NCBI GenBank assembly: GCA_964597065.1
Contig: CAZQXG010000005.1
Span: forward strand, 6,700 to 70,699
Source of the DNA: an uncultured Alcaligenaceae bacterium
Lineage (GTDB): Bacteria > Planctomycetota > Planctomycetia > Gemmatales > Gemmataceae
Length of the DNA: 64,000 nucleotides
Direction of reading: 5' to 3'
Within the stretch, counting starts at the first letter, position 1; every line of letters starts with the position of its first letter. A program made the position numbers and the translations under genes. Shown here one piece after another: positions 12,752-64,000 of this stretch. Under the pieces are notes generated by a model, which was given only the letters and a program-made list of their open reading frames with translations, had not been told where the DNA came from and ran no database searches.

Positions 12752-15700
12752 ATGCATTTGATCTTGCGGACGCAAAGCACCCGGTTGTTCCTGGCCAGCC
12801 TGGCGTTGGTCGGCGTCTTCCTCTCTTGGTTGATCCTTTCGTCCGTCGTGGCTACCGGACAAGAGCCCAAATCGGCCCACCCCATCCGCCCCGGCGACCG
12901 CATCGGCATCATCGGCAACACCCTGGCCGATCGCCTGCAGCACGACGGCTGGCTGGAGACTTTTTTTTACACGCGCTTTCCCAAGCATGACCTGGTGTTT
13001 CGCAATCTCGGTTTTTCCGGCGATGAATTGACGCAGCGGCTGCGCTCGGCCAACTTCGGCAGCCCCGACGATTGGCTGCGCAGGACACAGGCGGATGTGG
13101 TGTTCGCTTTCTTCGGCTACAACGAGTCATTCGCGGGAGACGCCGGTCTGGACAAGTTCAAAAAGGACCTCAATTCGTTCGTCAAACACACGCTCTCCCA
13201 GAAGTATAACGACAAGGGCGGCGCCCGGCTGGTGCTGTTCTCTCCCATCGCCCACGAGAACTTGCACAGTGTCAACTTCTCCGATGGCGTCGACAGCAAT
13301 CGCCGGCTGGAGAAGTACACGGCCGCCATGGCCGAGGTTGCCCGCGCCAACAAGGTCTCGTTCGTCGACCTATTGCAGCCGACCAAGGAGCTTTACGCCA
13401 AGGCGAGTTCGCCATTGACCATCAATGGCATTCATCTCAACGAGCAGGGCAACGAGGAGCTGGCCAGGATGATCGACAAGGCCCTGTTCGCCAACGAGCC
13501 CGAGCCGAGGCGGGAAACGGAGCGCATGGAAAAGGTTCGGCAAGCGGTCCAGGACAAGAACTTCTACTGGTTCAACCGCTACCGGACGGTGGACGGCTTC
13601 AATGTCTACGGCGGGCGGGCCGATCTCCGCTATACCGACGGCATCAGCAATCGCGAGGTCATGCAGCGGGAGATGGAAGTCCTTGACGTGATAACTGCCA
13701 ACCGGGACAAGCGCATCTGGGCCGTTGCCAAGGGGGGCGAACTGAAAGTGGACGACGGCAACACGCCCCCCTTTATCCCGGTGAAGACCAACCTCATCGG
13801 TCCGTTGCCGGGCGGCAAGCACCTCTTCCTGGGCGGCGCGGAAGCCATCAAGAAGATGACCGTGGCCCAGGGCATGAAGATCAACCTGTTCGCCTCCGAG
13901 AAAGAGTTCCCGGAGCTGGCCAACCCGGTGCAGATGTCGTTCGACGCCAGGGGCCGGCTGTGGGTGGCTGTGTGGCCGACCTATCCGCACTGGAAGCCCA
14001 AGGAGCCGATGAACGACAAGCTCATCATCCTCGAGGACACCGACGGCGACGGCAAGGCGGACAAGCTGACCGTCTTCGCGGACAACCTGCACTGCCCGAC
14101 CGGCTTCGAATTCTACAAGGACGGCGTGCTGGTCACCCAGGCACCGGACCTTATTTTCATGAAGGACACGGACGGCGACGGCAAGGCCGATGTCCGCGTG
14201 CGGGTATTGAACGGGCTGGACTCGGCCGATACGCACCACACGTCCAACAGCTTTGTGTTCGATCCGGGCGGGGCCCTGTACTTCCAGGAAGGCATCTTTC
14301 ACCGCACCCAGGTGGAGACGCCGTACACACCGACGCGGCGCCTCGCCGATGCCGGCGTCTTCCGCTTCGAGCCGCGCACCTCCAAGTTCGACGTCTACGT
14401 GGACTTCGGCTTCGCCAACCCGCACGGACACGTGTTCGATCGCTGGGGCCAGGACTTCGTCGTGGACGGCACCGGCGCCAACCCGTTTCACGCGGCGCTG
14501 TTCTCCGGGCAGACCGATTTCGGCGGGCAGCGCCATGGCCGGCCTCCCCAGCTCTACAACCAGAAGACTCGCCCCTGCCCCGGCCTGGAAATCCTCTCCA
14601 GCCGGCATTTTCCCGAGGCCAATCAGGGCAACCTGCTGGTGGCCAACGTCATCGGCTTCCGCGGCATACTGCAATACAACTTCGAGGACAAGGGCGCCAG
14701 CTTCGCCGGCAAGGAAGTCGAGCCGATCGTCTCGTCCACCGACCCGAACTTCCGGCCGTCGGACATCCGCGTCGGCCCGGACGGCGCCATCTACTTCATC
14801 GACTGGCACAACCCGATCATCGGCCACATGCAGCACCACCTCCGTGATCCCAACCGCGGCCACGAACACGGCCGCATTTACCGCGTGACCTGCCAAGGCC
14901 GGCCGCTCTTGAAGCCGGCCAAGGTCGCCGGCCAACCCATCGACAAGCTGCTCGACTTGCTCAAGGAGCCCGAGGACCGTGTCCGCTATCGGGCCCGCAT
15001 CGAGTTGGGCGGGCGAAAGACCGACCCGGTCCTGGCCGCCTTGCAAAAGTGGGTCAACCGGCTGGACGCCAAGGACCCGGAGCTCGAGCATCACATGCTG
15101 GAAGCGCTGTGGCTGCATCAAAACCACAACGTGGTCAACCAGGATCTCTTGCAGCGGATGCTGCGCTCGCCGGATTTCCGGGCAAGAGCGGCGGCTACCC
15201 GCGTGCTCTGCTACTGGCGCGACCGCGTCCAGAAGCCGCTCCAATTGTTGCGAGCCCAGATTAACGATGCCCAGCCACGCGTCCGGCTGGAGGCGATCCG
15301 GGCGTTAAGCTTTTTCAACACCGAACCGGCCATTGCCGTGGCGCTCGAGCTTCTCGCTTATCCGGATGATGAGTACCTGCGTTTCACCTTCAACGAGACG
15401 CTCAATACTCTTGAACGCCGGGTTGGCTCCGGGACGCGAGTCGACCGGAAGAACATCGCGGTCAGCTTGTTGAACATGCTGGAGAAAGGCAAGGTGGCTC
15501 CCGAGCGGCAAGCGGTGCTGATCGAAACCATATGCCGGCACGGCAGCGACAAGGAGTTGACAGTTATCTGGGCAAAGGCCCTGAGAAAAGGCTATCCGGC
15601 CGGGCTGCGCAAGCGGGTCGTGGAATGGCTGGCGGAGGCGGCCAGCAGCCGGCGGGCCCAGCCTTCCATTGAGCCCGGAAAACTTCAGAAGTTCCTGGCG

Positions 15701-17140
15701 GAGTCGGCGGACGATTCGGCCTTGTTGCCGGAGGTCATTCGCCTCGCCGCGACCTGGAAAGTCAAAGAATGTGGCGACGACCTGAGGAAAATCGCCCGCG
15801 GAAAAGGCTCGGCCCATCGGGAAGCTCGTTTTGCCGCCATCGACGGCCTGGCGGTGCTGCACGACGCGGAAAACCAACAGGCGTTGCGGCAGTTAACGAC
15901 GTCGTCCAACCCAATGCCGATCCGCTACCGAGCGGCATCGGCCCTGGCCCAGAGCGACCTGGACGCCGGAGCGCAGGCGGCGGCCGTCGACCTGGCTTCC
16001 TCGACCGACAAGGACGACCCCAGCCCGCTGGTGGAAGCGTTCCTGAACCGCAAGCACGGGCCGGACAAGCTGGCAGCCGCTCTGGAGAAGGAAAAAGTCT
16101 CGGCCGACACCGCCAAGCGCATCTTGCGGGCCATGTTCCTGGCCGGACGGAATGATGCTTCGCTGGCCACGGTGGTGAGCAAAATCGCCGGGCTGGACGC
16201 CTCGCCCAAGCCGCCCACTCCCGACGAGGTGCGCAAGATCGGCGCCCTGGTCCTGGCTAAAGGCAACGCCGATCGCGGCGAGCGCGTCTTCCGCCGGGCT
16301 GATCTCGGCTGCATCAAGTGTCATGCCATCAACAAGGCCGGCGGACGCATCGGCCCCGACCTCGGTCCCATCGGCGGCTCCTCACCCGTCGATTACATCG
16401 TCACGTCCATCCTCGATCCCAACCAGGCCATCAAGGAGGAGTACCTCACCAAGGCCATTGTCACCACAACCGGCTTGACCCTCACCGGCATCGTCGTGGA
16501 ACGCACCAAGAACCAGGTCGTGCTCAAGGACGCCAACGGCAAGCTCTTCAAGGTCCCGACAGCCCAGATCGAAGAAGAGGCCGCGGGCAAGTCGCTTATG
16601 CCGGATGGCGTCACTCGGCTGCTTACCGACGACGAGATGCTCGACCTGGTCCGCTTTGTGTCCGAGCTGGGCAAGCCCGGCCCATTCAGCCCGCGCGCCG
16701 TGCCCACCATCCAGAGCTGGCGACGGCTGCGCGAGGTCCCGGCCTCTCTCCTGGAGGGAGTCCCCAACCGCGACCTGGTCCGCGACCACCTGCTCCGCGA
16801 CGACCCGGGGGCTTGGGAGCCGGCCTATTCCCTCGTCAACGGCGATCTGCCGCTGCAGGAACTGCCCAGAGCTTCCAAGGCGGTCTATCTCCAGGGAGAG
16901 GTGAACGTGGCCGTCGCCGGCCCGGTCGAAGTCCGCCTCGATTCATCCGAGTCCACCACGTTCTGGGTCGACGAGGAAGCCTTCGAGAAACAGGACCGGG
17001 CGACGGTGCAACTGACGCCGGGGCGTCACCGCGTCACGGTGCGGTTGGAGATCGGCAGCGCGGCCGCGCCGCGCTTGCGCGTCGAGCTGCGCAAGCCAGC
17101 CGACGCCCGGACGGTGTTCCAGGTGGTGCAGGGGGAATAG
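12752..17140 (+). CDS. PVC-type heme-binding protein (SGNH hydrolase + membrane-bound dehydrogenase domain + HEAT repeats + cytochrome c)
   Basis: 1462 aa with a signal peptide, a GDSL-like N-terminus (IGIIGNTLADR, GFSGDE), a beta-propeller-like dehydrogenase block, HEAT-like repeats and CIKCHAINKAGGRIGPDLG heme c motif. Confidence 0.92.
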   Translation: MHLILRTQSTRLFLASLALVGVFLSWLILSSVVATGQEPKSAHPIRPGDRIGIIGNTLADRLQHDGWLETFFYTRFPKHDLVFRNLGFSGDELTQRLRSANFGSPDDWLRRTQADVVFAFFGYNESFAGDAGLDKFKKDLNSFVKHTLSQKYNDKGGARLVLFSPIAHENLHSVNFSDGVDSNRRLEKYTAAMAEVARANKVSFVDLLQPTKELYAKASSPLTINGIHLNEQGNEELARMIDKALFANEPEPRRETERMEKVRQAVQDKNFYWFNRYRTVDGFNVYGGRADLRYTDGISNREVMQREMEVLDVITANRDKRIWAVAKGGELKVDDGNTPPFIPVKTNLIGPLPGGKHLFLGGAEAIKKMTVAQGMKINLFASEKEFPELANPVQMSFDARGRLWVAVWPTYPHWKPKEPMNDKLIILEDTDGDGKADKLTVFADNLHCPTGFEFYKDGVLVTQAPDLIFMKDTDGDGKADVRVRVLNGLDSADTHHTSNSFVFDPGGALYFQEGIFHRTQVETPYTPTRRLADAGVFRFEPRTSKFDVYVDFGFANPHGHVFDRWGQDFVVDGTGANPFHAALFSGQTDFGGQRHGRPPQLYNQKTRPCPGLEILSSRHFPEANQGNLLVANVIGFRGILQYNFEDKGASFAGKEVEPIVSSTDPNFRPSDIRVGPDGAIYFIDWHNPIIGHMQHHLRDPNRGHEHGRIYRVTCQGRPLLKPAKVAGQPIDKLLDLLKEPEDRVRYRARIELGGRKTDPVLAALQKWVNRLDAKDPELEHHMLEALWLHQNHNVVNQDLLQRMLRSPDFRARAAATRVLCYWRDRVQKPLQLLRAQINDAQPRVRLEAIRALSFFNTEPAIAVALELLAYPDDEYLRFTFNETLNTLERRVGSGTRVDRKNIAVSLLNMLEKGKVAPERQAVLIETICRHGSDKELTVIWAKALRKGYPAGLRKRVVEWLAEAASSRRAQPSIEPGKLQKFLAESADDSALLPEVIRLAATWKVKECGDDLRKIARGKGSAHREARFAAIDGLAVLHDAENQQALRQLTTSSNPMPIRYRAASALAQSDLDAGAQAAAVDLASSTDKDDPSPLVEAFLNRKHGPDKLAAALEKEKVSADTAKRILRAMFLAGRNDASLATVVSKIAGLDASPKPPTPDEVRKIGALVLAKGNADRGERVFRRADLGCIKCHAINKAGGRIGPDLGPIGGSSPVDYIVTSILDPNQAIKEEYLTKAIVTTTGLTLTGIVVERTKNQVVLKDANGKLFKVPTAQIEEEAAGKSLMPDGVTRLLTDDEMLDLVRFVSELGKPGPFSPRAVPTIQSWRRLREVPASLLEGVPNRDLVRDHLLRDDPGAWEPAYSLVNGDLPLQELPRASKAVYLQGEVNVAVAGPVEVRLDSSESTTFWVDEEAFEKQDRATVQLTPGRHRVTVRLEIGSAAAPRLRVELRKPADARTVFQVVQGE

Positions 17141-17395: not shown

Positions 17396-17452
17396 GAGCT
17401 GCACCGACCGCCCGACTCCCGGACGGTCTTCCAAGTTGTGCAGGGGGAATGA
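17396..17452 (+). repeat. second copy of the last 19 codons of the 12752..17140 gene
   Basis: gagctgcaccgaccgcccgactcccggacggtcttccaagttgtgcagggggaatga versus 17084-17140, about 79% identical. Encodes ELHRPPDSRTVFQVVQGE* versus ELRKPADARTVFQVVQGE*. Confidence 0.8.
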
Positions 17453-31392: not shown

Positions 31393-31598
31393 AGAGCGTC
31401 CCCGCCTATCACCGAGGGTTACATCACTGTCACCTTCCGGGCAACGAAACACAGCGTCGAGTGGATGTTTGGGCTGACTCTTCACCCGGGGCCACCCGGC
31501 CGAATTTTGGCCGGCAACAGGCGGCAAAATCAGGTAACAGATTACGGGAAAATCTCCTAGAACACCATGCGGGCACGTCTTCGAAATGGGGTGTTCGC

Positions 31599-32423
31599 AT
31601 GGCCACGCCAGTTGTTGTTTCTTGTTATCCAGAAGGGGGCCCGGGCCGCCACTTGAAGGCTCGCCTGGCTGCCGGAGAAGTATTGCTGGGCGGCATCCTG
31701 GCGGAGTATGCCCGTCCCTCCCTGGTCAAGCTCTACCGCGAGGCAGGTTTCGATTTTCTGTACGTCGAGTACGAGCACGGTTCCTTCGCTCCGGGCGCGT
31801 TGGCCGACACCGTGCTGTGCGCCCGCGATAACGGCTTGCCGGTGATCGCCAAGACGCCGCAACTGGAACGCGCGGAGGTCGCCAGGTTGCTGGAATGCGG
31901 CGTGGTCGGCATTCAACTGCCGCGGACCGAAACGCGGCACCAGGTGGAAACCTTGCGCGGTTATTTGAAGTTCCCGCCGGCCGGCTCCAGGGCGGTCGCG
32001 CCGGGGTACGGCAACAGCGACTATCTCCAGCCCGGCGACTGGAAGAGATGGATGGCCGAGCAAGATGCCGAGACGCTCCTGGTCGTGCACATCGAGACCA
32101 GGTTGGGCTACGAGAAGGCGGCCGAAATCATCTCGACCCGGGGCGTGGACATGGTTTATATCGGTCCAGGCGATTTCTCCATCGAGATGGGACATCCCGG
32201 AGACTACGACCATCCCCAGGTCGCCGGCCCGATGAGCGAGATGGTGGCGATATGCGCCAAGCACGGCGTCCCGTTCGGCACCACGGCTTCCAGCGCGGAG
32301 GCTGCCGGCGCCTGGATCAAGAAAGGCGCACGCTTTTTCGAGACGATGGATGAGTTGACTTTCATCCAGCAGGCAGCGTCGAGGCTCGTTCAAGAATACC
32401 GCACCGTGATGCCCCAGCGCTAG
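31599..32423 (+). CDS. HpcH/HpaI-family aldolase (second paralogue)
   Basis: ATG at 31599. LYVEYEHG...VGIQLPRTE...IGPGDFS. Confidence 0.8.
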   Translation: MATPVVVSCYPEGGPGRHLKARLAAGEVLLGGILAEYARPSLVKLYREAGFDFLYVEYEHGSFAPGALADTVLCARDNGLPVIAKTPQLERAEVARLLECGVVGIQLPRTETRHQVETLRGYLKFPPAGSRAVAPGYGNSDYLQPGDWKRWMAEQDAETLLVVHIETRLGYEKAAEIISTRGVDMVYIGPGDFSIEMGHPGDYDHPQVAGPMSEMVAICAKHGVPFGTTASSAEAAGAWIKKGARFFETMDELTFIQQAASRLVQEYRTVMPQR

Positions 32424-55123: not shown

Positions 55124-55897
55124 ATGACCTACATCGAGACGTTTGACGACGGACCGGGCGGCTGGTTCAACGTGACCAACAACTTCGCCGGGCCGAAGAA
55201 GCTGGAGTATCGGCGGGGCAGCGTCACGGCGCGCAGCCCGTGGTGGGTGGATTACAACCACGCCCCTCCCGGCGCCGGCTACCTGCACATGCTGTTCGTG
55301 CTGCCCACGCATGGCCCACTGGGCGAGGCGGTCATGGAAGCCGGCGGCGTCAACCGCTTTATCCTCGGCGAGCAACTCGGCAAGCAACTCGGCAAGCAAC
55401 TCGGCAAGCAACTCGGCAAGCAACTCGGCGAGCAACTCGGCGAGCAAGCGGGCGGGTTTGCCACCGATTTCACAAAGGCTCGGCTCACGGTGCGCTGGCA
55501 GGGGGAACTCGAGACGCGCGGCGCGCAGCCTTGCCTGTTGCTGCAAGCGTCGGCCGAAGGGCTGGTTTCAGGTTGGGCTTGCACCGGCCGCCCGTTTCAG
55601 GTCACGCCCGACTGGACCGAGCAGACCATCACCATCGAGCCCGACGAATCGCTATGGACATGCCTGGGCGGACGTCACGATCGGACGGCTTTCTATGGCC
55701 GGCTCGACCTGGCCCGCGTCATTGGCGACGTCAACGTGAACCTGATGCTCATCTTGTTTCCCCTGGATATCGTGCCCATGGGCCCCGTCGCCGGCGACCC
55801 GCATCGCCGCCGCGCCGATTGGGACTACCCCGTCTGGCGCTCGCGCTTGCCGGAAGGCTACGTCACGCTCGACGAGGTGCGGATTGAATTCCCATGA
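55124..55897 (+). CDS. hypothetical protein with internal QLGK repeat
   Basis: 257-aa ORF with protein-like composition and ATG at 55124. No family recognised. Confidence 0.55.
   Translation: MTYIETFDDGPGGWFNVTNNFAGPKKLEYRRGSVTARSPWWVDYNHAPPGAGYLHMLFVLPTHGPLGEAVMEAGGVNRFILGEQLGKQLGKQLGKQLGKQLGEQLGEQAGGFATDFTKARLTVRWQGELETRGAQPCLLLQASAEGLVSGWACTGRPFQVTPDWTEQTITIEPDESLWTCLGGRHDRTAFYGRLDLARVIGDVNVNLMLILFPLDIVPMGPVAGDPHRRRADWDYPVWRSRLPEGYVTLDEVRIEFP
55370..55453 (+). repeat. 12-nt tandem repeat, about 7 units
   Basis: (g/a)agcaactcggc repeated. Encodes EQLGKQLGKQLGKQLGKQLGEQLGEQ. Confidence 0.9.
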
Positions 55898-56590: not shown

Positions 56591-56777
56591 GGCAAACCCT
56601 CCCCTGTGACCGATGGTAGCGTTCCTTGATGTTCTGGGAACGGAGCGGACTTGTCAAGGCATCCCTCGGCTCTTTGCTGAACCCGAAGGGAATTCTGAAC
56701 GGTCCGCCCCCTTCAGTTTGGATACAATGACGGACAGTGATCCGCGAAAGCTGCTTGGCGAAACGCGGGAGCAAAAC

Positions 56778-59009
56778 ATGAAAACGATGCGCTGGATATC
56801 CCTGCAAATCTTGGCGGGCATCGCCCTTCTCGTGGTGAGCCTGGCAGGCCGATCCCAAGAAACTGCGGCGGCGGGCAAGGCGGCCGAGCACTGGTCCTTT
56901 CACAAGCCGGTGCGGCCCGTGCTGCCCGACGCCGGCCGGCTCAAGTACGGCGACCGGGTGCGCAATCCTATCGATGCGTTTGCCCTGAAGAAGCTGGAAC
57001 AGGAGGAGCTGGTGCCGGCGCCTCGGGCTGACAAGCATACTCTGGTGCGCCGCGCGTATTTCGACCTGCTCGGCCTACCTCCCACGCCCGAGCAGGTTGC
57101 CAAGTTCGTCCGCGATTCCTCCGCCGACGCCTGGCCCAAGCTGATCGATGAGCTGCTCAAATCACCGCACTACGGCGAGCGCTGGGGCCGGCACTGGCTT
57201 GACGTCGCGCGCTACGCCGACTCGGGCGGCTATGAGACCGACATCTATTACCGCAATGCCTGGCGCTATCGCGACTACGTGGTCAAGTCGTTCAACGACG
57301 ACAAGCCTTATGACCGGTTTGTGCAAGAACAAGTCGCCGCCGACGAGATTTGGCCCGATAACCTCGACCTTCAGCCGCGGCGGGTCTACATCGTCTCCGA
57401 GGAAAAGCGCCAACACCTTGAAGCCCGGCTCGGCACCGGCTTCTATGCACTCGGCCCGCAGATCCATGAATCGGGCCTGGACGCCGGGAAACTCAGGTAC
57501 GAGCAATTGACCGATTGGGTGGACGCCACCGGCTCGGTGTTCTTGGGCTTGACGATCGGCTGCGCGCGTTGCCACAACCACAAGTTCGATCCGATTACGC
57601 ACCGCGACTACTTCGGCATGCAGGCGATTTTCGCCGGCAGCGTTGAGGCCGAGGCGCCGCTCTTGACCGCCATGGAGATTGCCGATTGGAAACAGAATTA
57701 TCCGAAGATTCTGGCGGTGGACGAGGCTCGCCGCGCCTACCGGTTGTTCGAGAAAAAGACCGCCGGGCGAAAATTGACCCTGGAAGAAGCGCAGCAACGC
57801 CGGCAGCTTCTGGAGAACATCGCCCAGGGGGTGCTGCAGCTTCCCGAACGAGCCGCCTCGGTTCCCTCCTCGCCGTATGACGGCCTGATGGAGGTCCCGA
57901 CGGCCACGGTGCTTGGACACGAGCACCGCGAGCTGGCCAAGCCTGTCCACCTGCTCCAGCGCGGCGAACTCAGCCGGCCGCGACAAAAGATCGACGCGGC
58001 GCTGCCCGTCACGCTGGCCGCAGCCACCGGTTGCAAGCCATCCCTTCCCGGCCCCTTTGGCAGCCGCAAGCAGTTGGCCCTGTGGCTGACGCAGCCGGAC
58101 CACCCGCTGACGGCCCGAGTGATGGTCAATCGCATCTGGCACTGGCATTTCGGCCGCGGTCTCGTCGCCACGCCCAACGATTTCGGCGCCATGGGTCGGC
58201 CGCCGACCCATCCCGAATTGTTGGACTGGCTGGCCAGCGAATTCGTCGCCCAAGGCTGGAGCATCAAAAAGATGCACCGCCTGATCATGCTTTCAAGCAC
58301 CTACCAGATGTCGAGCCGTTCCAGCACCAGCGCAGACCTGAGGCGGGATCCGGACAATCGCTATCTGTGGCGGATGAACCGCCGCCGCCTGGAAGCAGAA
58401 GCGCTATGGGACTGTGTGCACGCCGCCGGCGGCACGCTGAACTTGCAGATGGGCGGCCGGCCTGTGGTGCCGCCGCTGGCCGACGATGAGATCGCTGCTT
58501 TACGCGAGAAGTGGCACTGGCCCGTCGCCGCCGACCCGCGCCAGCACACGCGGCGTGGCATGTATATCCTGGTGCGCCGCAATTTCCGCTTCCCCATGTT
58601 CGAAGTCTTCGACGGGCCGGTCACGTCCGTCAGTTGTCCCGCGCGCGACGTGACCACGGTGGCGCCCCAGGCATTGTGGAGCTTGAACAATCGCTCGGTG
58701 TTCCGCCAGGCGCAAGCATTCGCCGGCCGCGTGCTGAAAGAGGCGGGCGACAACCCCGAGCATTTTCTCGACCGCGCCTGGCTCATCGCGCTGGCCCGGC
58801 CGCCGTCGGCACAAGAAAAACGCGAAGGCTTGACGTTGCTCGACACACTCGCCCGGCGCGCCGGCAAGAGCGGCAGCGGCCGGCCAACCCACGTCCCTCT
58901 GGACCATCCGCCTAAAGAACTCATGGCACTGCCCCCGGAACGAGCGGCAGCGCTGGTGCAGTTCTGCCTTGCGCTTTACAACGTGAACGAATTTGCGTTT
59001 GTCGACTGA
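56778..59009 (+). CDS. DUF1549/DUF1553 (PSD1-type) protein
   Basis: ATG at 56778 after GGGAG, with a signal peptide. NPIDAFALKKL...YFDLLGLPPTPEQV...HYGERWGRHWLDVARYADS...CARCHNHKFDPI. Confidence 0.9.
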   Translation: MKTMRWISLQILAGIALLVVSLAGRSQETAAAGKAAEHWSFHKPVRPVLPDAGRLKYGDRVRNPIDAFALKKLEQEELVPAPRADKHTLVRRAYFDLLGLPPTPEQVAKFVRDSSADAWPKLIDELLKSPHYGERWGRHWLDVARYADSGGYETDIYYRNAWRYRDYVVKSFNDDKPYDRFVQEQVAADEIWPDNLDLQPRRVYIVSEEKRQHLEARLGTGFYALGPQIHESGLDAGKLRYEQLTDWVDATGSVFLGLTIGCARCHNHKFDPITHRDYFGMQAIFAGSVEAEAPLLTAMEIADWKQNYPKILAVDEARRAYRLFEKKTAGRKLTLEEAQQRRQLLENIAQGVLQLPERAASVPSSPYDGLMEVPTATVLGHEHRELAKPVHLLQRGELSRPRQKIDAALPVTLAAATGCKPSLPGPFGSRKQLALWLTQPDHPLTARVMVNRIWHWHFGRGLVATPNDFGAMGRPPTHPELLDWLASEFVAQGWSIKKMHRLIMLSSTYQMSSRSSTSADLRRDPDNRYLWRMNRRRLEAEALWDCVHAAGGTLNLQMGGRPVVPPLADDEIAALREKWHWPVAADPRQHTRRGMYILVRRNFRFPMFEVFDGPVTSVSCPARDVTTVAPQALWSLNNRSVFRQAQAFAGRVLKEAGDNPEHFLDRAWLIALARPPSAQEKREGLTLLDTLARRAGKSGSGRPTHVPLDHPPKELMALPPERAAALVQFCLALYNVNEFAFVD
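58881..59009 (+). repeat. direct repeat A (functional 3' end of the DUF1553 gene)
   Basis: 129 nt, about 92% identical to 59966-60094. Confidence 0.85.
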
Positions 59010-59016
59010 TCAATAC

Positions 59017-59060
59017 GGCTGTCAGGAACGTTTCCTTCCGGAAAACATGGCTGACAGCCG
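59017..59060. other. 10-bp hairpin directly after the DUF1553 gene stop
   Basis: cggctgtcag, a 24-nt loop (itself containing gtttcc/ggaaac), then ctgacagccg. No U-tract follows. Confidence 0.55.
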
Positions 59061-59096
59061 CCATCCCGGCTATGATGGATTGGAGGACGACTCGCC

Positions 59097-59195
59097 ATGA
59101 AAGTCATCGACGAGACGATCGAGGCCACGCTGGATTCGAACGGTCAGCTGCGACTGACACACCAGCCGCGGCAACCGCGGTCGGGCACAGCTTGA
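59097..59195 (+). pseudogene. 32-codon stub resembling an AbrB/SpoVT-type antitoxin N-terminus
   Basis: MKVIDETIEATLDSNGQLRLTHQPRQPRSGTA, with GGAGG 11 nt upstream. Far shorter than full antitoxins. Confidence 0.3.
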
Positions 59196-59235
59196 CGCGC
59201 AATACGGCTTGACGGCGGAATGGGCTGGGGAGAAC

Positions 59236-59664
59236 ATGAGCGCTCCAACGCGACCGCCCACTGCATCGGAACTGCTGGCGCGTTCGGAGGTCATTCAGGC
59301 GCTTGTTGGAGCGTGGGCGGACTCCCGGGGCGACGACCCGACCGATCGACACGAGGAGGGTGGGTGGATTTACCTGGATCTTTCGACAGGAGTCATCGTG
59401 ACGCGAAGGGCCCCGACCGGAACGCGGAGCCGCCTGTCCCTGGCCAATCCGCCGCTGTTGCCCAATCATGTGATTGTGGGGACGTTTCATACGCATCCGA
59501 ATCCCGCTTCGGAGGGGTGGAAAACCGGGCCGAGCATTCAAGACGAGCAGGCGGCAAGCTACAGTGGCGTTCCCTGGCTGATTCGCGCGGAGGACGGCGA
59601 TCACAGCGCGGGGTCCGACAGCCGCAGGGGCGGGCTCGGGGGTGGTCCCGGTTATCCGCCCTGA
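59236..59664 (+). CDS. JAB/DUF4329-like domain protein
   Basis: ATG after GGGGAG. EEGGWIYLD...VGTFHTHPNPASEGWKTGPSIQD fits an HxH...S..D metal-site pattern, as in the DUF4329 domains of polymorphic toxins. Confidence 0.45.
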   Translation: MSAPTRPPTASELLARSEVIQALVGAWADSRGDDPTDRHEEGGWIYLDLSTGVIVTRRAPTGTRSRLSLANPPLLPNHVIVGTFHTHPNPASEGWKTGPSIQDEQAASYSGVPWLIRAEDGDHSAGSDSRRGGLGGGPGYPP

Positions 59665-59687
59665 CAGCCCGCGAAAGGAGACGAAAT

Positions 59688-59927
59688 ATGGCGACAGTGA
59701 GTCCATCAGGAACAAGCCTGGCGGTTGCCGAGGTGCTGCGCATTGCACATCAGGACGCCCAGGCCGTCTACCGCGACCTCTCAGGGTTCAAGATCACGCT
59801 GACGCCTTGCCCCGACGGTTGGCACGTTGATTATGATTTGACGGACCTTCTTACCGCAGGAGGAGGTCCGCACTATGTGATCCACCCCGATACCGGGGAC
59901 ATTGTGGCCCGACGCTACGAGCAGTAG
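59688..59927 (+). CDS. small immunity-type protein
   Basis: ATG after AAAGGAG, 79 aa. The layout (AEVLRIAHQDAQAVYRDLSGFKITL...GWHVDY...GGGPHYVIHPDTGDIVARRYEQ) resembles PepSY/NTF2-like immunity proteins. Confidence 0.45.
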   Translation: MATVSPSGTSLAVAEVLRIAHQDAQAVYRDLSGFKITLTPCPDGWHVDYDLTDLLTAGGGPHYVIHPDTGDIVARRYEQ

Positions 59928-59965
59928 GCTGGCAGAAGCAAGAAGCGAAGCAGCACGACAGCGGC

Positions 59966-60094
59966 CGGCCAGCCCAGGTCCCACTGGACCATCCGCCCAA
60001 AGAACTCACGGCACTCCCCCCGGAACGAGCGGCAGCCCTGGTGCAGTTCTGCCTGGCGCTTTACAACGTGAACGAATTTGCCTTCGTCGACTGA
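59966..60094 (+). repeat. direct repeat B (displaced copy of the DUF1553 gene 3' end, frame preserved)
   Basis: Encodes RPAQVPLDHPPKELTALPPERAAALVQFCLALYNVNEFAFVD*, versus RPTHVPLDHPPKELMALPPERAAALVQFCLALYNVNEFAFVD* in copy A. Confidence 0.85.
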
Positions 60095-60164
60095 CCACCA
60101 AGGGGAAAAACAAGAAACACTCGGGACTCTTGACATCGGGCCCAGCACCGGTTCTACTCACTAT

Positions 60165-60243
60165 TGACGTAATATGCCGCCGGCGCCGTAATACCCTGAC
60201 GGGGCAGGAAACTACGCTGCCGGCAAGGTAATATGGTGCCGGC
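60165..60243 (+). promoter_or_regulatory. possible promoter/operator region of the vapBC pair
   Basis: TTGACG, about 18 nt, TAATAC. The GTAATATG(C/G) motif with GCCGGC recurs at 60169 and 60228. Pattern match only. Confidence 0.3.
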
Positions 60244-60273
60244 AAGCCCTCATTCGCCTCAGAAAGGTGTGTC

Positions 60274-60489
60274 ATGGAAATCGAAGGCGTGGTTCATAAT
60301 GGCGTCATTGTGCCGGACGACGCGGCGGGGTTGTCGGAAGGGACCCGAGTCCGAATCACCCCGGTTCCACTTGAAAACCCGAGGCCATTCGGCGAACGGT
60401 TCGCGCAGTTCAAGGGTGCAGTGCCTGGTTTACCGGCGGACTTGGCCGATCAACACGACCATTATCGCCTGGGGACCCCGAAGCGATGA
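60274..60489 (+). CDS. vapB: VapB-type antitoxin
   Basis: 71 aa. MEIEGVVHNGVIVPDDAAGLSEGTRVRITPV has a swapped-hairpin-like N-terminus. 4-nt overlap with vapC. Confidence 0.65.
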   Translation: MEIEGVVHNGVIVPDDAAGLSEGTRVRITPVPLENPRPFGERFAQFKGAVPGLPADLADQHDHYRLGTPKR

Positions 60490-60887
60490 CTGTTTTTGCC
60501 GATACGTTCGCGCTCATTGCCTGGCCGAACCCTCGCGATAATGCGCACGCTGTTGTGTCGGCATACCTCGACGGCTTTACCGGGCGTTTGCTGACAACGG
60601 AATGGGTACTCATGGAACTGGCCGATGCGCTGTCGGCGCCGGAAGCGCGTTCGACAGCCGTTGCATTTCTGCGAGCCGTTCGTGCTGACTCGCTGTTTGA
60701 TGTCGTGGGGTATGTCCCCGCCGTGTACCAAGCAGGGTTCGACCTGTTTGCCACTCGCCCGGACAAAGCCTGTTCCCTGACGGATTGAATCTCTTTTGGA
60801 GTAATGACGGAGCGTGGGCTGTCCGAGGCGTTGACGGCCGACCACCATTTCGAGCAAGCTGGTTTTCGGGCGGTTTTCAAACGGTAG
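60486..60887 (+). pseudogene. vapC: vapC (PIN toxin) with in-frame TGA at a conserved Cys position
   Basis: ...DKACSLTD-TGA(60786-60788)-ISFGVMTERGLSEALTADHHFEQAGFRAVFKR-TAG, all in the same frame. PIN toxins commonly have DC at this position. Confidence 0.7.
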
Positions 60888-60897
60888 GCTCGGGAAG

Positions 60898-60993
60898 GCC
60901 GAACCAGAGGCTGCAGCTGACCGGGCTGGCATTATGCCGTTTCATGGTTCAACGGTCACTCAAGCGGCCCGGCAGCTGAGCTTTATCGTTCGG
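60898..60993 (+). repeat. structured repeat family, copy 1
   Basis: gccgaaccagaggctgcagctgaccgggc...gcccggcagctgagctttatcgttcgg, with an internal stem cagctgaccgggc/gcccggcagctg. Confidence 0.7.
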
Positions 60994-61010
60994 CGGAAAA
61001 AGGCAACGCG

Positions 61011-61490: not shown

Positions 61491-61507
61491 GAACGACAAG
61501 GCTATCA

Positions 61508-61590
61508 CGCCGAACAAGTCGCTCAACCTGACCGGGGCCGCATTCTCGTTTCGCGCGGCGTGGAGTAATTGCAGCGGCCCCGGCAAGTTT
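61508..61590 (+). repeat. structured repeat family, copy 2
   Basis: cgccgaacaagtcgctcaacctgaccggggccgc...gcggccccggcaagtt, immediately after the 61490 stop. Confidence 0.65.
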
Positions 61591-61781
61591 GCGCGCCGCG
61601 GCGACGCCAAGACCATGCTTAGTATCAAGCCGAACCGCCTGGTCGTCGTCGCCATACAGGTACGTTCACATGGTTCGCCACACTGCCAGAAGTGATCGAG
61701 GAAAAGCCGGGGCATCCGGGGACGGCGCGATAAGATAAAGTTGCCTGGCTGGCCAGAGTTTCCCAAGAAGGAGGCGACCCC

Positions 61782-62562: not shown

Positions 62563-62807
62563 GCGAATCCGATCCCATCGTCGATGAAGTACGTCGCATT
62601 CGCGACGCCCATGCCGCCAAGTTCAACTACGACCCGGATGCGATTTTCCGAGACATCAAGGAGCAGGAAAAACGGAGCGGCCGACACTACGTTTCTTTTG
62701 CTGACGAAACGGTTGCGCCGAACAAGGCGCTACAGCCGACCGGGGGCGCCATTCCGGCTTCTTGCGAGATTAAGCCGTTGCAGGGGGCCCCGGCGGCTGA
62801 GCTTTAG
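62559..62807 (+). CDS. small partner protein; C-terminal tail supplied by repeat copy 3
   Basis: ATGA overlap with the preceding gene. MSESDPIVDEVRRIRDAHAAKFNYDPDAIFRDIKEQEKRSG, then PNKALQPTGGA...AAEL from the repeat. Confidence 0.5.
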   Translation: MSESDPIVDEVRRIRDAHAAKFNYDPDAIFRDIKEQEKRSGRHYVSFADETVAPNKALQPTGGAIPASCEIKPLQGAPAAEL

Positions 62808-62814
62808 CGTTCGG
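62716..62814 (+). repeat. structured repeat family, copy 3
   Basis: gcgccgaacaaggcgctacagccgaccggggg...ggccccggcggctgagctttagcgttcgg. The tail is nearly identical to copy 1. Confidence 0.7.
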
Positions 62815-62933
62815 TGAAAAGATTTGGGATTCGATGTCGTCCGACGGCGCGGAGTGATCCTGGCCGACGACGCCGAGCGGAACCGGGAACTGGACGCCGC
62901 GCGCCGCAGTACCTCACCGGGGCGGCCGTGAGC

Positions 62934-63370: not shown

Positions 63371-63501
63371 GTAAAGGTCTCGGAACTCTCGGGACTTCAT
63401 ATGGCGGAAAAGGTGCACTCAGGAATTCTCGTTGAGGAACCTGCTACCACCGGGTTTCGGCCGCGTCGTCTCGTCGACTTCGTGGTCGTCGGCCGCCTTC
63501 C

Positions 63502-64000
63502 TTGACGATCCCGCAGATTCTGGCTTGGGCCGATAGTCATTACGCCCGTACTAGGACTTGGCCCACGGCAAAGAGCTCCGGGAGTGTACTGGAAAACCGG
63601 AATGAGACGTGGGTAGGGATTAACGCAGCATTGACAGGGGGCGGGCGCGGCCTTGATGGCGGTTTAACGCTGGCTAAACTCCTTGCCCGCGAGCGGGGCG
63701 TGCGCAATGCCAGTGACCTGCCGCCGTTGACCATCGCCCAAATCCTGGCCTGGGCCGACAGTCATCATGCTCGTACCGGCACTTGGCCCAGCGGAAAGAA
63801 GGTGTCGGGGCGAGTATTGGAAAACCGGAATGAGACGTGGATAGGGATTAACAGAGCATTGCAAGGGGGCGGGCGCGGCCTCGATGGCGGTTTAACGCTG
63901 GCTAAACTCCTTGCTCGCGAGCGGAAGTGGTCCGGTGTCAATGGCGCACTCGGAAAGGGGGCGCTTGGAGTTCGTGGCTTGCGCGGTCGCCTCACGCTAC
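63502..64000 (+). CDS. repeat protein (75-aa units), open to the window edge
   Basis: Frame 1 is open from 63436 to 64000. It has two full 225-nt units (LTIxQILAWADSHxARTxTWP...ETWxGINxALxGGGRGLDGGLTLAKLLARER). No ATG is present, so TTG at 63502 is a possible start, or this is a 5'-truncated fragment. Confidence 0.5.
   Translation, partial: MTIPQILAWADSHYARTRTWPTAKSSGSVLENRNETWVGINAALTGGGRGLDGGLTLAKLLARERGVRNASDLPPLTIAQILAWADSHHARTGTWPSGKKVSGRVLENRNETWIGINRALQGGGRGLDGGLTLAKLLARERKWSGVNGALGKGALGVRGLRGRLTL

Follow-up and report, generated by a model that had tools for sequence, protein, structure and literature searches.

A gene end present twice around a two-gene cassette

We analysed a 64,000-nt stretch of contig CAZQXG010000005.1 (assembly GCA_964597065.1, positions 6,700 to 70,699, forward strand), hereafter the window, in which the 3´ end of a DUF1549/DUF1553 gene occurs twice and brackets a small cassette that encodes a predicted toxin of the JAB family and its predicted immunity protein. 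The source is a metagenome-assembled genome (MAG) of 185 contigs and 5.3 Mb that is 66% complete, named as an uncultured Alcaligenaceae bacterium and placed by GTDB in the Gemmataceae of the Planctomycetota. The locus comprises the following features, in window coordinates:

56778 to 59009, forward strand: DUF1549/DUF1553 (PSCyt2 plus PSD1) gene, by Pfam (PSCyt2 E=1.2e-81, PSD1 E=5.8e-89)
58871 to 59012, forward strand: upstream copy (U) of the repeat, the working 3´ end of the gene, with the TGA at 59007-59009 (repeat search, MAFFT, blastn)
59016 to 59060, forward strand: hairpin with a 10-bp stem just past the stop codon, no T-run (DNA fold -14.3 kcal/mol, z=-3.5)
59097 to 59195, forward strand: 32-codon open reading frame (ORF), the stub (ORF list)
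59215 to 59955, forward strand: conserved cassette of a ribosome-binding site, two ORFs and a 28-nt tail (blastn against related loci)
59236 to 59664, forward strand: predicted toxin of 142 residues, a free-standing Tox-JAB-2/DUF4329-like protein with a JAMM domain (motif, AlphaFold2 and Foldseek, Pfam, substitution pattern)
59688 to 59927, forward strand: predicted immunity protein of 79 residues, Imm-NTF2-2/PepSY-like (synteny, Pfam, AlphaFold2, substitution pattern)
59956 to 60097, forward strand: downstream orphan copy (D) of the gene end (repeat search, alignment, ORF list)

The public gene call of the DUF1549/DUF1553 protein has 743 residues, and the longest ORF begins at 56613. Copy U consists of the last 43 codons of this gene. 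A reading of the locus from its sequence alone (the sequence-only reading) had described a duplication of about 92% identity at 58881-59009 and 59966-60094, which repeat search, MAFFT and blastn confirm. The full direct repeat, 58871-59012 and 59956-60097, spans 142 nt with 12 mismatches, no gaps and 92% identity, slightly longer than the 129 nt first reported, which correspond to the in-frame coding part; the two flanks match each other by blastn with E=3e-53. Pairwise alignment places a sharp left edge of homology at 58871/59956. Both copies end in LYNVNEFAFVD followed by TGA, and homology stops 3 nt past the stop codon and does not resume. The 142-nt repeat has only these two copies in the genome. 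Copy D offers no start codon that yields an ORF of at least 30 residues, and its frame differs from that of the 79-residue gene. In DUF1553 orthologues (75-76% identity) the DUF1501 partner gene lies directly downstream; at orthologue-level identity this partner was not found in the 66%-complete MAG.

The interval between the copies holds more than the cassette. The hairpin behind the stop codon is unmatched in 160 related loci and is thus unique to this locus. The stub had been called antitoxin-like, which finds no support: it has no Pfam, NCBIfam or PADLOC match and is unlike the neighbouring antitoxin-like ORF at 60274. We also considered a larger, diverged duplication that would include the stub, and rejected it, since the sequence after U does not align with that after D and the stub does not resemble the ORF at 60274. 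Both cargo genes carry ribosome-binding sites of the GGAG type, as had been noted, and the second starts at 59688 rather than 59689. The GC content of the cargo is not unusual, a promoter and terminator scan of the locus was uninformative, and Rfam gave no match over 54-64 kb.

The cargo encodes a predicted JAB-domain toxin and its predicted immunity protein

The 142-residue protein contains a JAMM motif, composed of E41, H85-T-H87 and S100-x-x-D103. In an alignment of 41 homologues, E41 and H87 are invariant, and H85, S100 and D103 are at least 90% conserved. The predicted JAMM-type domain keeps all metal and catalytic residues. The AlphaFold2 model has a mean confidence (predicted local distance difference test, pLDDT) of 89.5. 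When it was compared with the PDB by Foldseek, the best 34 matches, the majority of the 50 listed, were all JAMM/MPN-domain proteins, which include Pyrococcus furiosus JAMM1, AMSH/Sst2, BRCC36, an Rpn11 homologue, AF2198, CSN5 and eIF3, with weak scores (best E=6.7e-3, template-modelling score 0.36-0.49). Against Pfam the protein stays below the curated cut-offs, with 15.5 bits for DUF4329 (cut-off 28.6) and 18 for Prok-JAB (cut-off 25). The same sub-threshold matches recur among the homologues, for Prok-JAB in 37 of 41 and for DUF4329 in 32 of 41. The earlier assignment to JAB/DUF4329 is therefore upheld by the motif, the fold and consistent sub-threshold profile matches.

A profile search further revealed the same domain at the C-terminus of proteins of up to 2253 residues that carry RHS repeats or the core domain of extracellular contractile injection systems (eCIS), a hallmark of polymorphic-toxin tips. 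The free-standing form is common: a large protein collection contains 746 homologues, nearly all of 141-145 residues, and a profile search of 1.84 billion cluster representatives recovered 831 clusters at 50% identity. Searches of PADLOC, NCBIfam and PDB sequences with the 142- and 79-residue proteins returned no matches.

Of 164 fetched loci, 143 have the 79-residue gene immediately behind the JAB gene. The AlphaFold2 model of the 79-residue protein (pLDDT 81.5) has a single helix that packs against a sheet of four strands; its fold matches, to the PepSY proteins YpmB and FoxB, are weak. Profile matches of its homologues, all below cut-off, are to Imm-NTF2-2 (21 of 38) and PepSY (22 of 38). 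An immunity-like role had been suggested for this ORF, and its Imm-NTF2-2/PepSY-like character and its conserved position behind the JAB gene are consistent with this. We determined the ratio of nonsynonymous to synonymous differences per site (pN/pS) for both cargo genes against their nearest relatives; it is 0.13-0.28, and 0.15-0.20 for the 79-residue gene, which indicates that the two ORFs are real genes under purifying selection. The genome holds a second Tox-JAB-2/immunity pair at C139:2375-3077 (56% and 47% identical) and, at C47:24392-24598, a lone homologue of the immunity gene (59% identical) with no toxin beside it, possibly an orphan immunity gene.

The best reading of the cargo is a free-standing Tox-JAB-2 toxin with its own immunity protein; its toxicity is predicted, and its family is assigned by the consistent sub-threshold matches. 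The predicted immunity protein would bind and block the toxin, so that the pair would form an addictive toxin-antidote module. It may additionally protect the cell from RHS or eCIS toxins with the same tip.

The cassette recurs among unrelated genes and carries no element machinery

The nearest copies of the cassette are found at L102, in an Acidobacteriaceae MAG (91% nucleotide identity over 59216-59934), at L016 (88%) and at L017 (85% from 59215), and they sit among unrelated genes. Nucleotide similarity among the copies is confined to about 59215 to 59927-59955, which covers the ribosome-binding site and the two ORFs; the 28-nt tail up to 59955/59956 is shared with L032 only. The cassette context is unrelated to that in the window in the inspected loci, four of them by DNA alignment and about 160 by blastn and flank comparison. 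No match to the DUF1553 gene end or the linker (58600-59214) was found in the roughly 160 loci by blastn, and the DUF1553 gene end is the flanking repeat at none of the loci where a repeat was identified. These alignments place the hairpin, the stub and the DUF1553 end outside the unit that travels.

Discrete element ends were considered and rejected. Contexts diverge 0-28 nt past the immunity stop codon and about 20 nt before the toxin start, and across about 30 loci the cassette ends have no shared motif, inverted or direct repeat, or hairpin. Within the cargo we found no attachment (att) site, integron attC site, terminal repeat or recombinase. A domain search of the cargo and of the ORFs from 5 kb upstream to the contig end revealed no recombinase, in agreement with the sequence-only reading, and none was found in the ten other bracket cargos of this genome described below.

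Gene-end brackets recur around the cassette and throughout the genome

To determine how often the cassette is bracketed, we searched 87 distinct loci with enough flanking sequence for a direct repeat of 40 nt or more with one copy within 450 nt on each side of the cassette. Brackets of 50-216 nt are present at 11 of the 87 loci, compared with 3 of 358 shifted control positions (odds ratio 17, Fisher p=2e-6). The bracketing repeats vary by locus and are mostly the 3´ end of the neighbouring gene through its stop codon: DUF1501 (L027), nuoC (L116), leuA (L132), rsmG (L131) and a histidine kinase gene (L059). L070 is an exception, in which the bracket is the 5´ part of a TIR gene. At one pair of strain variants, L064 (1389-1488) and L075, identity is 97% overall and 73-83% across the upstream copy, and the downstream copies are identical, which suggests a patch of local recombination or conversion at the repeat.

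Comparison of the genome with itself yielded 13 brackets in which 45-309 nt of the 3´ end of a long gene recur 0.24-3.8 kb downstream. Two of the 13 look mis-framed, which leaves 11 clean brackets, the present locus included. The ten others (L182-L191) lie on contigs C2, C3, C8, C9, C11, C78, C88, C156, C160 and C162; the bracket on C78 is at glmS, and that on C11 is at a gene that we take to be pntB-like. A twelfth clean bracket lies within the window itself:

17084 to 17140 and 17396 to 17452, forward strand: the last 57 nt of the gene at 12752-17140, which recur about 255 nt downstream, with GAA-TAG in one copy and GAA-TGA in the other

The cargos of the other brackets are unrelated and include ECF sigma-TPR, protein kinase, CHAT-TPR, HlyD, Uma2, NOV_C and DUF6941 genes. 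The edges of the 11 brackets share no core, and the left edges have no common motif. The right edges coincide with the stop codon, and paired copies often differ in the kind of stop codon (for example TAG versus TGA). For the glmS bracket an empty site is available: in the same-genus genome G001, glmS lies beside the same flank without the 3.8-kb cargo.

The two copies differ as alleles do

If D were an orphan copied in place and free to decay, about 40% (about 0.42) of codon differences would be synonymous and pN/pS would be near 0.57. Across the 43 codons, U and D differ at ten, of which seven differences are synonymous and three are replacements (T/A, H/Q and M/T), which bears out the earlier remark that the differences are mostly synonymous or conservative. 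The resulting values are pS 0.215 and pN 0.032, a ratio of 0.15 that resembles the functional cassette genes compared with their relatives. At the M/T position, the T of D occurs in 2 of 8 orthologues and the M of U in none of the 8. In the ten other clean brackets of the genome, 71 differences are synonymous and 20 are replacements (78% synonymous), which departs strongly from decay in place (binomial p=3e-12). Because the differences are mostly synonymous and pN/pS is like that of working genes, the simplest reading of these sequences is that U and D would be two alleles of one gene end, each selected while in use and only later united.

The sequence-only reading had proposed an element that integrates at the 3´ end of a gene and brings a replacement end. 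A replacement end is consistent with the allele-like copies and their low pN/pS. The evidence speaks against a discrete element with its own attachment site: the nearest relatives of the cassette lie beside unrelated genes and share only the ribosome-binding site and the two ORFs, neither a recombinase nor an att site is present, and this genome shows the footprint around unrelated cargo at least 11 more times.

Origin of the bracket

The reading that we favour, and consider somewhat probable, is that related-strain DNA was added through a homology anchor and that the resident gene end was displaced in the process. The donor, the sequence of events, the route of recombination and the toxicity with its neutralisation are inferred. 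The donor DNA would have brought its own allele of the DUF1549/DUF1553 gene end, its stop codon immediately followed by the cassette. One side would have been joined by recombination within the gene homology, and the other closed by an illegitimate joint or a Campbell-type joint (a circle with a single crossover) 142 nt before the resident gene end. The incoming allele end would now complete the gene as U, and the resident end would have been displaced downstream as the untranslated orphan D, with no element-encoded recombinase or attachment site involved. The cassette would persist because only its ribosome-binding site and two ORFs are under selection. Illegitimate recombination that homology facilitates has been proposed for the displacement of effector-immunity modules of type VI secretion systems (T6SS) and of Rhs tips (PMC5361080).

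Several points weigh against this explanation. The bracket in the window is borderline when taken alone (seven of ten synonymous, p about 0.04; seven of 11 when the boundary codon is counted), and the six JAB-cassette brackets pooled give 20 synonymous to 14 replacement differences (p=0.036). Among the relatives found, none is near enough to reveal an empty site or a donor allele, since even the best orthologues reach just 75-76% identity. The Pfam matches of the window's own cargo proteins are all below curated cut-offs. Homology-facilitated illegitimate recombination is rare in experiments (PMC5361080). Finally, displacement by incoming DNA does not alone account for the loss of homology exactly at the stop codon in almost all brackets; serial replacements at hot spots that erode unselected sequence are a possible cause of this edge.

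The chief competitor, to which we give clearly less credence, is a true insertion with long target duplication, in which a single insertion copied 142 nt of target to both sides by staggered breaks or replicative repair and the copies then diverged or were partly overwritten by other alleles. The layout is that known from restriction-modification genes, where mobility genes are absent and the repeats vary from 46 to 420 bp (PMC2853133). In seven loci the orphan copy directly adjoins the cassette tail, 20-54 nt past the immunity stop codon, the copies in some brackets reach 98-100% identity (L086, L116 and that on C162 of this genome), and the synonymous excess at the window bracket alone does not decide for an allelic origin over duplication in place. 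Against it stand the substitution pattern, both here and in the ten other brackets, which is far from the expectation for duplication in place, and the retention of in-frame stop codons of different kinds in paired copies; nor is a mechanism known for such a duplication in place. It is unlikely that the cargo is instead an integrase-less remnant, or a cis-mobilisable integrative element that targets the DUF1553 end, carries a replacement end and was moved in trans by a recombinase encoded elsewhere. Its topology would be the same as that of e14 and phage 21 in icd, the left edge of the repeat holds 13 identical nt (CAGCGGCCGGCCA, with the palindrome GGCCGGCC inside), and the genome encodes tyrosine recombinases, IntI among them. 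However, neither the cargo nor its vicinity contains a recombinase, the nearest copies of the cassette adjoin other genes and lack a DUF1553 end, the many target genes are unrelated and their repeat edges lack a common motif, and the repeats, of 45-309 nt, are diverged along their full length.

Two further explanations carry little weight. Planctomycetes hold dozens of DUF1549/DUF1553 paralogues, so D might be the last remnant of a tandem paralogue whose body was deleted, and a paralogue that once coded would likewise give synonymous-biased differences. This is largely refuted and very improbable: homology starts sharply at 59956, right behind the cassette tail and with no trace upstream, which indicates that D is not the tail of a decayed paralogue, the other DUF1553 paralogues of the genome match the repeat over at most 31 nt, and the same geometry occurs at the single-copy housekeeping genes glmS, leuA, nuoC and rsmG. 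Least credible of all is an assembly artefact that joined two strain variants, for which the fragmented and incomplete state of the MAG speaks. To place the two arms of a strain bubble in series, an assembly would need the cargo end to overlap with the sequence before the repeat, and the same footprint is present in many independent assemblies.

Displacement of the resident end by related-strain DNA concerns this locus; a broader and tentative proposal, which we regard as a minority possibility, is that the brackets, rather than being recombination accidents, are the signature of a dedicated recombinase-free route. This route would add cassettes exactly at stop codons and copy or displace 45-310 nt of the gene end, throughout this genome (5.3 Mb with at least 12 footprints) and across phyla. 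It might be exploited by toxin-immunity cassettes, or even triggered by them if the JAB protein is a nuclease.

Surroundings of the locus

Downstream of the orphan copy lies a series of small same-strand cassettes ended by imperfect palindromes of about 100 nt, which hold a PIN-type pair, a 159-residue ORF, a DUF5678 ORF and others. When folded as the bottom strand, the palindromes adopt the shape of integron attC sites, with an R-box stem, an internal loop and an L-box stem with bulged bases.

60274 to 60788, forward strand: next cassette, closed by an attC site, with a 71-residue ORF and a PIN-like ORF (100 residues, apparently truncated); weak PIN match, 74% nucleotide match in the relative G008
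60889 to 61004, 61500 to 61616 and 62708 to 62825, forward strand: three integron attC sites that bound small cassettes (folds, covariance model)

A covariance model (R1) built from these three sites scores them at 101-115 bits and finds 18 sites in the genome; within 59013-60270 it detects none. Contig C61 carries a full intI gene (31464-32411), whose TIGR02249 score of 424 bits exceeds the cut-off of 265, and a partial intI adjoins attC sites on C111. We rejected the identification of the bracketed cargo as an integron cassette, because it contains no attC site; it heads an attC cluster.

The PIN-like ORF (60486-60979 region) stops after 100 residues, and the reading is taken up by a second ORF, 60785-60979, that extends into the attC site; a frameshift in vapC or an error in the sequence may be the cause. 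Two tandem repeats were also observed in the window. A duplication of about 225 nt with units 76-91% identical (63495-63924) lies inside an ORF that leaves the window end, near the contig end, and seven to eight tandem 12-nt units (CTCGGCAAGCAA, LGKQ repeats) lie at 55352-55459 within a 257-residue ORF (55124-55897).

Comparison with known systems

The footprint named insertion with long target duplication was described for restriction-modification genes (Nobusato et al., 2000; Furuta, Abe & Kobayashi, 2010; PMC2853133). It resembles the present locus in that a small selfish pair without transposase or integrase lies between direct repeats, tens to hundreds of bases long, whose sequence is specific to the site and some of which overlap gene 3´ ends. 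Here, too, the direct repeats are unique to the site and longer than 30 bp, and no transposase, integrase or mobile element lies in or beside the insert. The cargo differs: restriction-modification genes there, a predicted toxin-immunity pair here and ordinary accessory genes elsewhere in this genome. Here, in contrast to a fresh long target duplication, the repeat runs up to the stop codon and the differences between its copies are allele-like.

The locus is also similar to the displacement of Rhs C-termini and of T6SS modules (Jackson et al., 2009; Kirchberger et al., 2017, PMC5361080), in which homologous incoming DNA brings a new 3´ end together with an immunity gene and the old end becomes an orphan; the predicted cargo domain belongs to the same world of Rhs and T6SS toxins. 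However, the tip that arrives in those systems is another toxin domain for the same toxin gene, whereas here the host gene is an unrelated DUF1549/DUF1553 gene that receives nearly the same peptide end, and the predicted toxin is a separate gene.

Zhang et al. (2012) described Tox-JAB-2 (equivalent to DUF4329, with conserved E, H[ST]H, S and D) as paired with Imm-NTF2 family 2, which has a conserved Y and W, listed Imm-NTF2-2 for E. coli only, and suggested that toxin JAB domains may be nucleases rather than peptidases (PMC3482391). The pair in the window shares the motif, the JAB/deaminase-like fold, a small alpha+beta downstream partner with conserved Y and W, and the occurrence of the domain at RHS C-termini. 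Unlike the Tox-JAB-2 described before, the predicted toxin is free-standing, has 142 residues and no trafficking domain, and is common in Planctomycetota and Acidobacteriota.

Like integron cassettes, the cargo is small, promoter-less and on the same strand as its neighbours, and such cassettes are often toxin-antitoxin pairs; three attC cassettes follow downstream and IntI is encoded in the genome. In contrast, an attC site is absent from the cargo, and recombination in integrons leaves no long duplication. The integrative elements e14 and phage 21 in icd, as well as cis-mobilisable elements (CIMEs), restore the 3´ end of a protein gene. In these elements, as here, the gene end is duplicated, the copy borne by the element differs at synonymous sites and the orphan end is found on the far side. 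They employ a specific integrase and one fixed target, whereas here no integrase is present, the targets are many and the cassette travels without the gene end.

Implications

Both halves of this arrangement have precedents, namely the pairing of toxin with immunity protein and recombinase-free insertion with long flanking repeats. New are the type of cargo, the broad occurrence of an unannotated family among Planctomycetota and Acidobacteriota, the significant association between cassette and brackets, the allele-like orphans and their density in one genome. The widespread pair can now be given a name, free-standing Tox-JAB-2 with its immunity protein, and it is far commoner outside Proteobacteria than the 2012 survey recorded. 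If the proposed origin is true, toxin-immunity cassettes and many ordinary accessory genes would enter planctomycete genomes without a transposase or integrase, the end of the neighbouring gene would serve as the homology handle and the short orphan end would remain as a datable scar. Such orphan-end scars are easily searched for and could mark recent gene gain in uncultured bacteria.

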